Shown piece by piece: positions 16,102 through 17,648 of a stretch of DNA of 64,000 nucleotides. The stretch's first letter is position 1, and each line of letters begins with the position of its first letter. Origin of the DNA: Escherichia coli (GTDB lineage: Bacteria > Pseudomonadota > Gammaproteobacteria > Enterobacterales > Enterobacteriaceae); NCBI RefSeq assembly GCF_003334785.1, contig NZ_QOWV01000001.1; one strand, written 5' to 3'. A program made the position numbers and the translations under genes. The notes under the pieces were generated by a model. That model did no database searches and had not been told where the DNA came from. It worked only from the letters and a program-made list of their open reading frames with translations.

Positions 16102-17037
16102 TTATTTCACTTCAACCACATTCAGCCGTAACTCATCCAACTGATTTTCATCTTCTTCTGGCTGCCAGCACGCCGGTTGTAGTGGGATCTCTTCGCGATC
16201 AAACGCCAGATCACCCCCGTTAACCACTTCAGAACCGTGGGTGATGCCTTTGAAATCGAACAGGTTGGTATCGCACAGATGCGACGGCACCACATTCTGC
16301 ATCGCGCTGAACATCGTCTCGATACGCCCTGGATAACGTTTATCCCAGTCACGCAACATGTCAGCAATCACCTGACGTTGCAGGTTAGGCTGTGAACCGC
16401 ACAGGTTGCACGGAATAATCGGGAACGCTTTTGCATCGGCAAATCGCTGAATATCTTTCTCGCGGCAGTAGGCCAGCGGACGAATAACGATATGTTTGCC
16501 ATCATCGCTCATCAGTTTCGGAGGCATACCTTTCATCTTACCGCCGTAGAACATATTTAAGAACAACGTTTGCAGGATATCGTCACGATGGTGACCCAAC
16601 GCGATCTTCGTCGCCCCCAGTTCCGTTGCGGTACGATAAAGGATACCGCGACGAAGGCGAGAACACAGTGAGCAAGTGGTTTTGCCCTCTGGAATCTTCT
16701 CTTTCACGATACCGTAAGTATTCTCTTCAACAATCTTGTACTCAACGCCCAGCTTTTCAAGATACTCGGGCAGAACGTGTTCCGGGAAGCCCGGTTGCTT
16801 TTGATCGAGGTTAACAGCCACCAGCGAAAAATTGATTGGCGCGCTTTGCTGCAAATTGCGCAGAATCTCCAGCATGGTATAGCTGTCTTTACCCCCGGAG
16901 AGGCAAACCATGATGCGATCGCCTTCTTCAATCATATTGAAGTCAGCAATGGCTTCGCCCACGTTACGACGCAGACGTTTTTGTAATTTGTTCAGGTTGT
17001 ATTGTTCTTTCTTACTAATTTCTTGATTTTGCGACAT
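16102..17037 (-). CDS. ttcA: tRNA 2-thiocytidine(32) synthetase TtcA
   Basis: 311-aa ORF with PP-loop SGGKDS motif and CxxC pairs; uninterrupted. Confidence 0.9.
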
Positions 17038-17213
17038 TTAAAAGCGACTCAATTCGTTATATGGCATCAGAAGAGTATGCGTCATGCCGGAACGCCCAGC
17101 ATAAGAAATCTGATATAAAAAACTGTGGCGTGTATGGTACGGATTAGAGGGGAAAATGTCAGCACATTTGCGAAATGAATCAAAAAGCCCGCAGCAATGT
17201 GCGGGCGTTAGTG

Positions 17214-17648
17214 TCAGCGCACAACCAGCACGGAGCACTCTGCGTGACGCACTACAGCTGCGGCGTTGGAACCGAGCAGATAAGTGGTGATATCCGGTCG
17301 ATGGGAAGCAATGATGATCATATGAGCGGGGATCTTCTTCGCCAATTCCAGAATGCGGTCTTTGGGCGAGCCTTCCTCAACATGGACATGCACTCTGTCG
17401 GTTGGCAGTTTAAATTTTTTAATGATCTCTTCCAGTTGCGATTTGGCTTCCGCTTTCAGGTCATCCATTGCCGGTAATTCTGCGGAATACGCTAAACCCA
17501 GAGAGGCATAGTAGGGCAGTGAAGGTATTACCGTCAGGAAATGAACCTCTGCATCATCAATCTTTGCCTCTTCCTCAACGTGGCTAATCACGCGTTGAGT
17601 TAATTCTGAATCGGAAATATCGATAGGGACAAGAATCGTTCTGTTCAT
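17214..17648 (-). CDS. uspF: Universal stress protein F
   Basis: ORF 17214..17720; start at [10 protein letters not shown] (144 aa) preceded by AGGAGG Shine-Dalgarno. Confidence 0.85.

Follow-up and report, generated by a model that had tools for sequence, protein, structure and literature searches.

A Rac-type attachment site at the 5' end of ttcA appears unoccupied in an Escherichia coli strain close to K-12

The 64,000-nt stretch of E. coli DNA analyzed here (the window; assembly GCF_003334785.1, contig NZ_QOWV01000001.1) almost certainly contains, judging from its alignment to K-12, an unoccupied attB site for Rac-type lambdoid prophages within the first 50 nt of ttcA. The site is clean, with neither an integrase fragment nor a scar, since the alignments to the two sides of Rac in K-12 meet at a single core and K-12 has this core at both ends of the prophage. 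An empty Rac site together with the ancestral form of the protein, TtcA', is already known, and the window is one more natural example of a locus without rac.

The integration site of Rac and Rac-like prophages lies in ttcA (Liu et al, 2015, Sci Rep 5:16074, PMC4632033). The same study reports that attL and attR match imperfectly and that the excisionase is XisR (YdaQ), and it showed experimentally that excision of Rac from K-12 changes exactly four N-terminal residues of TtcA. An 'ancient' N-terminus is found in strains that have no Rac in ttcA, and this TtcA' form leads to lower metabolic activity than TtcA under carbenicillin (Liu et al, 2015). In K-12 MG1655, the annotation of the cryptic prophage Rac spans 1411899..1434958 (23,060 bp). 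On the left, the prophage extends over the first 50 nt of ttcA, with intR and xisR coming immediately after; on the right, its end holds a 51-nt pseudogene, ttcC, 176 bp from uspF. The original prediction had placed a Rac prophage of about 23 kb at the 5' end of ttcA in K-12 and a ttcA remnant near uspF, and the annotation bears out both points.

In the window, ttcA (tRNA 2-thiocytidine(32) synthetase; 16102..17037, minus strand) is a single, complete open reading frame of 311 codons, as predicted, and encodes the ancestral TtcA'. The protein scores 513.5 bits against the NCBIfam equivalog NF007972 (cut-off 272) over residues 3-287. It contains the PP-loop motif SGGKDS at residues 47-52 as well as the conserved cysteines Cys122, Cys125, Cys210, and Cys213. 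The neighboring gene, uspF (universal stress protein F; 17214..17648, minus), starts with an ATG at 17648 and encodes 144 aa; its product matches the equivalog NF011581 across residues 1-144 of 144 (302.2 bits, cut-off 166). The intergenic spacer between the two genes (17038..17213, minus) is exactly 176 bp, the distance originally predicted and the same as that between ttcC and uspF in K-12.

The surroundings of these two genes are also arranged as in K-12. On the left, dbpA (14600..15973, plus, from the list of open reading frames) is convergent with ttcA and collinear both with K-12 and with the annotation of strain VE-F10; on the right, past uspF, lies ompN (17789..18922, minus). The Rfam matches in the window are three small RNAs, all expected, each full-length and at its K-12 position: McaS (10745..10840, minus), FnrS (14218..14335, plus), and MicC (19147..19267, plus). 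No tRNA genes were found in the 64 kb. By eye, we also spotted a REP-like palindromic element, GCCGGATGCGACGCTGGCCGCGTCTTATCCGGCCTCC, in the convergent intergenic region between dbpA and ttcA (16010..16100).

The junction itself is visible when the window is compared to K-12 by BLAST. One alignment (window 12089..17030, 99.92% identity) runs up to and just into the attL region, and a second (16988..23029, 99.95%) runs from attR onward; the two share only 16988..17030, the att region. Left of the core, the window tracks the attL side, with the body of ttcA; right of it, the window tracks the attR side, with ttcC, the spacer, and uspF. A three-way alignment of the window, attL, and attR, together with direct extraction of the sequences, places the switch point at a 26-bp core, TTGTTCAGGTTGTATTGTTCTTTCTT, which lies at 16988..17013 within ttcA codons 9-17 and is identical in the window, in K-12 attL (L001 4900-4925), and in K-12 attR (L001 27960-27985). 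The core is single-copy in the window even when three mismatches are allowed, with 0 copies expected by chance. The flanks differ from K-12 by one mismatch across about 4.9 kb on the left, the att region excluded, and by three across 6 kb on the right. Aligned to the K-12 attL and attR junctions, then, the two bacterial arms meet at a single core with nothing inserted between them, in agreement with the empty-site configuration that had been proposed.

A further instance of this site is found in the record of phage Rac-SA53 (KU052037.1, L007 722..747), where a 26-bp att is annotated at the homologous position and is identical to the core at 23 of 26 positions. The three differences are adjacent and fall in the right half (TATATCTC in Rac-SA53 vs TATTGTTC in K-12 and the window). 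Because they are all confined to the right half, the comparison hints that strand exchange takes place within the left 15 bp of the core, TTGTTCAGGTTGTAT. A reconstructed K-12 attP, searched against the phage collection, gave no match spanning the junction: conservation is limited to the core and the intR arm, and the other arm differs between phages.

The start of ttcA distinguishes the window from the K-12 lysogen. The first 17 codons of the gene (16987..17037, minus) are the native 5' end and the counterpart of K-12 ttcC (L001 27959-28009): the two sequences are identical, and translation of ttcC gives the first 17 residues of the window's TtcA. The window protein therefore begins MSQNQEIS, as the pseudogene encodes, whereas K-12 TtcA begins MQENQQIT, from a 5' end supplied by the phage. 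Beyond the core, 7 of 24 nt differ between the native start and the copy carried by the phage, which accounts for the two N-termini. Overall, the proteins are identical at 307 of 311 residues, and the only differences are at residues 2, 3, 6, and 8. The intactness of ttcA had been offered as a mark of the empty site; the gene is indeed intact, but K-12 ttcA is also a complete gene of 311 codons, so that intactness does not distinguish the two states. The marks of the empty site are instead the adjacency of uspF and the first eight codons of ttcA, which specify the ancestral N-terminus.

Upstream of ttcA, the 176-bp spacer is base-for-base identical to the spacer between ttcC and uspF in K-12. 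In K-12, this native upstream region sits before ttcC, and ttcA lies 51 bp downstream of intR. A pattern scan of the window found a hairpin resembling a terminator downstream of uspF (17206..17187), with a T-run behind it; this pattern is enriched over shuffled sequences. The same type of scan gave a single weak sigma-70-like match upstream of ttcA (17162..17134), a candidate promoter; shuffled sequence yields promoter-like matches at least as often as this region does, and for this reason we claim no promoter for ttcA.

These features fit a model in which, in lysogens, the tyrosine integrase IntR would recombine the phage site with the core at ttcA codons 9-17. A Rac-type phage would carry its own ttcA start (17 codons, with four amino-acid changes), which would replace the native segment at 16987..17037; ttcA would remain open because the phage supplies its own copy of the start. 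Integration would thereby displace the native start by about 23 kb, together with the region upstream of it and whatever native promoter that region holds, leaving them as ttcC beside uspF. In the window strain, such an integration has either never taken place or been exactly reversed by excision. With the site not occupied, both the 5' end of ttcA and the region upstream of it are still the native ones, and the gene product is the ancestral TtcA'. Beyond the anatomy, the junction, and the protein variant, which are observed directly at the site, ttcA is presumably expressed from a native promoter, and by analogy with the occupied genomes and the att annotated in Rac-SA53, we infer that the site could accept a Rac-type phage.

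The prediction that the window holds no integrase or other phage genes also stands. In BLAST searches, K-12 chromosomal DNA located outside Rac accounts for every one of the 64,000 bases, and the Rac interior (K-12 L001 4943-27959) has no match of at least 150 bp in the window; neither intR, xisR, recET, kilR, nor racR is present in the 64 kb. The annotation of the matching regions in K-12 and VE-F10 shows ordinary chromosomal genes throughout, with mppA and ynaI at one end and hrpA at the other. Because the entire window is collinear with non-prophage K-12 DNA, it is free of phage genes along its whole length.

The window differs from K-12 in ways other than the loss or absence of Rac. Four mobile insertions of K-12 are missing (IS5F, Rac itself, and both IS2D and IS30C in ydbA), there is one fewer 294-bp repeat in ydbA, and about 0.1% of positions carry substitutions. 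Since the other insertions are absent, the ydbA repeat number is lower, and substitutions have accumulated, this is a distinct strain rather than a cured K-12. On similarity to K-12 alone, it probably belongs to phylogroup A.

Several of these differences can be located precisely. IS5F, which lies between ynaI and ynaJ in K-12, is absent at window 2328..2331, where the two K-12 alignments share 4 bp, the pattern expected of an IS5 target that has not been duplicated. In the window, ydbA is an uninterrupted open reading frame of 1,922 aa (47421..53189, plus), whereas IS2D and IS30C interrupt the K-12 copy, a pseudogene; the repeat that the window has one fewer of corresponds to 98 aa. The C-terminal 800 residues of YdbA score 1,076 bits against the NCBIfam BigA autotransporter adhesin, below the cut-off of 3,400. 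Strain VE-F10 (NZ_AP027946.1; L003 28957..30376 and 20732..21883), otherwise near-identical, has lost paaA-paaH and parts of paaZ and paaI, a deletion corresponding to window 34923..42797, where the window keeps these genes; its ydbA, unlike that of the window, contains an IS30. The loss of paa genes and the gain of IS30 in VE-F10 indicate that the paa-ydbA region changes quickly among very close relatives. Strain IAL7250 (NZ_CM130729.1) matches window 1-25000 and 39001-64000 at coordinates consistent with a single collinear stretch of 64 kb, but its bit scores fall short of the highest ones observed, so it is probably not identical to the window.

To place the locus in the species, we searched 5,426 complete E. 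coli genomes. The empty state, defined as a contiguous match to a 2-kb dbpA-ttcA-uspF-ompN segment, is found in 2,488 of 5,426 genomes (46%), and most of the others break at query position ~1131, which corresponds to window 17030. Some intR-like sequence is present in 2,919 of the 5,426, and 1,886 (~35%) have the full K-12-type ttcA-intR junction; a remnant class, about 19% of genomes, keeps only the last 232 nt of the integrase. These figures are frequencies among sequenced genomes and not among natural populations, because the collection is biased to laboratory, clinical, and outbreak strains. In Nissle 1917 (NZ_CP035486.1, L006 7552..9737), ttcA and uspF are separated by a 231-bp integrase fragment together with about 2.1 kb of decayed sequence; this remnant contains a DUF1627 fragment and a frameshifted gene annotated as 'metal ABC transporter permease', and represents a third state of the locus, seen in B2-type strains. 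We also took an evenly spread sample of 60 genomes and searched it with the locus joined in one query to a reverse-complemented set of Rac genes (intR, recT, part of recE, kilR, and racR). The proportions resemble those of the full collection: in this sample, 28 genomes are empty, 11 have the remnant, and 17 have Rac genes as the best match; three are BL21-like, with only the uspF side matching best, and one is without the locus.

Given that remnants occur in about 19% of genomes, Nissle 1917 among them, one could ask whether the window has a degraded Rac scar of the kind found in phylogroup B2 strains in place of a truly empty site. The chance of this is negligible: only the native spacer of 176 bp lies between the genes, the start of ttcA is ancestral, and alignment to the K-12 ttcC-uspF spacer refutes a scar. 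A more serious question is whether the empty site is secondary, an ancestor having lost its Rac by precise IntR/XisR excision, which would regenerate attB and TtcA'. Precise excision of Rac in K-12 leaves exactly the sequence seen in the window (Liu et al, 2015), the window's flanks are nearly identical to K-12, and K-12-type Rac genes are present in strains closely related at this locus, D4 for example; moreover, the K-12 Rac is a defective prophage whose spread as a phage is improbable. On the other hand, because site-specific excision restores attB exactly, it leaves no trace, and the sequence fits both histories and cannot decide whether the site is ancestral or excised. Homologous recombination among close relatives could also move an occupied or an empty allele and explains the pattern equally well. 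We therefore regard a secondary origin as a tentative reading, with the balance somewhat against it, and we give the same guarded weight to its specific form, in which a lineage that differs from K-12 by only about 0.1% recently lost a K-12-type defective Rac through precise excision. If a recent excision did occur, the window would be a natural example of the switch from TtcA to TtcA' that Liu et al made in the laboratory.

Whatever its history, an unoccupied site in ttcA would not mean a Rac-free strain if a Rac-like prophage lay elsewhere in the genome. Eight of the 28 empty-site genomes in the sample have extra matches to the combined query, whose nature and position the query does not give, and CFT073 has been mentioned in connection with Rac elsewhere in the genome (Liu et al, 2015). 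However, the other 20 have no second match, and in the full collection, the empty-site genomes and those with intR-like sequence together make up 5,407 of 5,426 (2,488 + 2,919), which fits a near-partition without proving it. A search with the recT-kilR segment bears on the extra matches: in most genomes, the recE fragment hits 'exonuclease' genes belonging to other lambdoid prophages, with 80-90% identity, and the real Rac recET-kilR module is found in only 1,614 genomes at a coverage of at least 80%. We rejected 'any Rac-like match' as a criterion, since these exonuclease genes make it unusable. Partial matches to Rac genes elsewhere are thus to be expected, given what the recE part recognizes, and do not contradict an empty ttcA. 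We regard a Rac-like prophage at another locus of the window strain as unlikely.

The unoccupied Rac-type site of the window can be compared to several known configurations. It shares with the excised attB of K-12 Δrac (Liu et al, 2015) the junction, the 26-bp core, the residues S2, Q3, E6, and S8, and the adjacency of ttcA and uspF across a 176-bp spacer; it differs in lacking IS5F, IS2D, IS30C, and one 294-bp ydbA repeat, and in its ~0.1% divergence. With natural E. coli and Shigella strains lacking rac (HS, IAI1, ATCC 8739, UMN026, and others; Fig. 5 of Liu et al, 2015), it shares the empty ttcA and the ancestral N-terminus, and there is no difference that matters, the window being another member of this group. 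Compared to the K-12 MG1655 lysogen, the gene orders zntB-fnrS-ynaL-dbpA-ttcA and uspF-ompN-micC-ydbK are collinear and ~99.9% identical, but K-12 has 23,060 bp of Rac between them, the MQENQQIT start of ttcA, and the ttcC remnant. The B2-type remnant of Nissle 1917 and ST131 has the same insertion point in ttcA, but differs in its 231-bp integrase fragment and ~2.1 kb of decayed DNA, neither of which is in the window. Without Rac at the usual site, the window strain is without recET, kilR, ralR/ralA, trkG, and the other Rac genes there. It would also make the ancestral TtcA', which one study has linked to lower fitness under carbenicillin (Liu et al, 2015).

The empty site had also been suggested as useful for strain typing, but its value for this is low, with ~46% of genomes sharing the state and both states occurring within O157:H7. 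We find a contiguous, empty site in the O157:H7 strain F8092B; among other strains of this serotype, Sakai and EDL933 have an occupied site, and that of EC4115 and TW14359 is empty (Liu et al, 2015). Given both states within O157:H7, the marker is coarse and recurs independently in different lineages. With ~46% of genomes empty, ~35% carrying the full intR junction, and ~19% the remnant, it divides the species into two roughly equal parts and is not constant within lineages. In contrast, the 25-kb segment at window 39001..64000, which contains the full paa operon, the intact ydbA, and ydbD-hrpA, discriminates strains far better than the empty Rac site: only 44 of the 5,426 genomes match at least 80% of it in one place. 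The closest genome is that of strain IAL7250 (NZ_CM130729.1), which is apparently collinear with the whole window.
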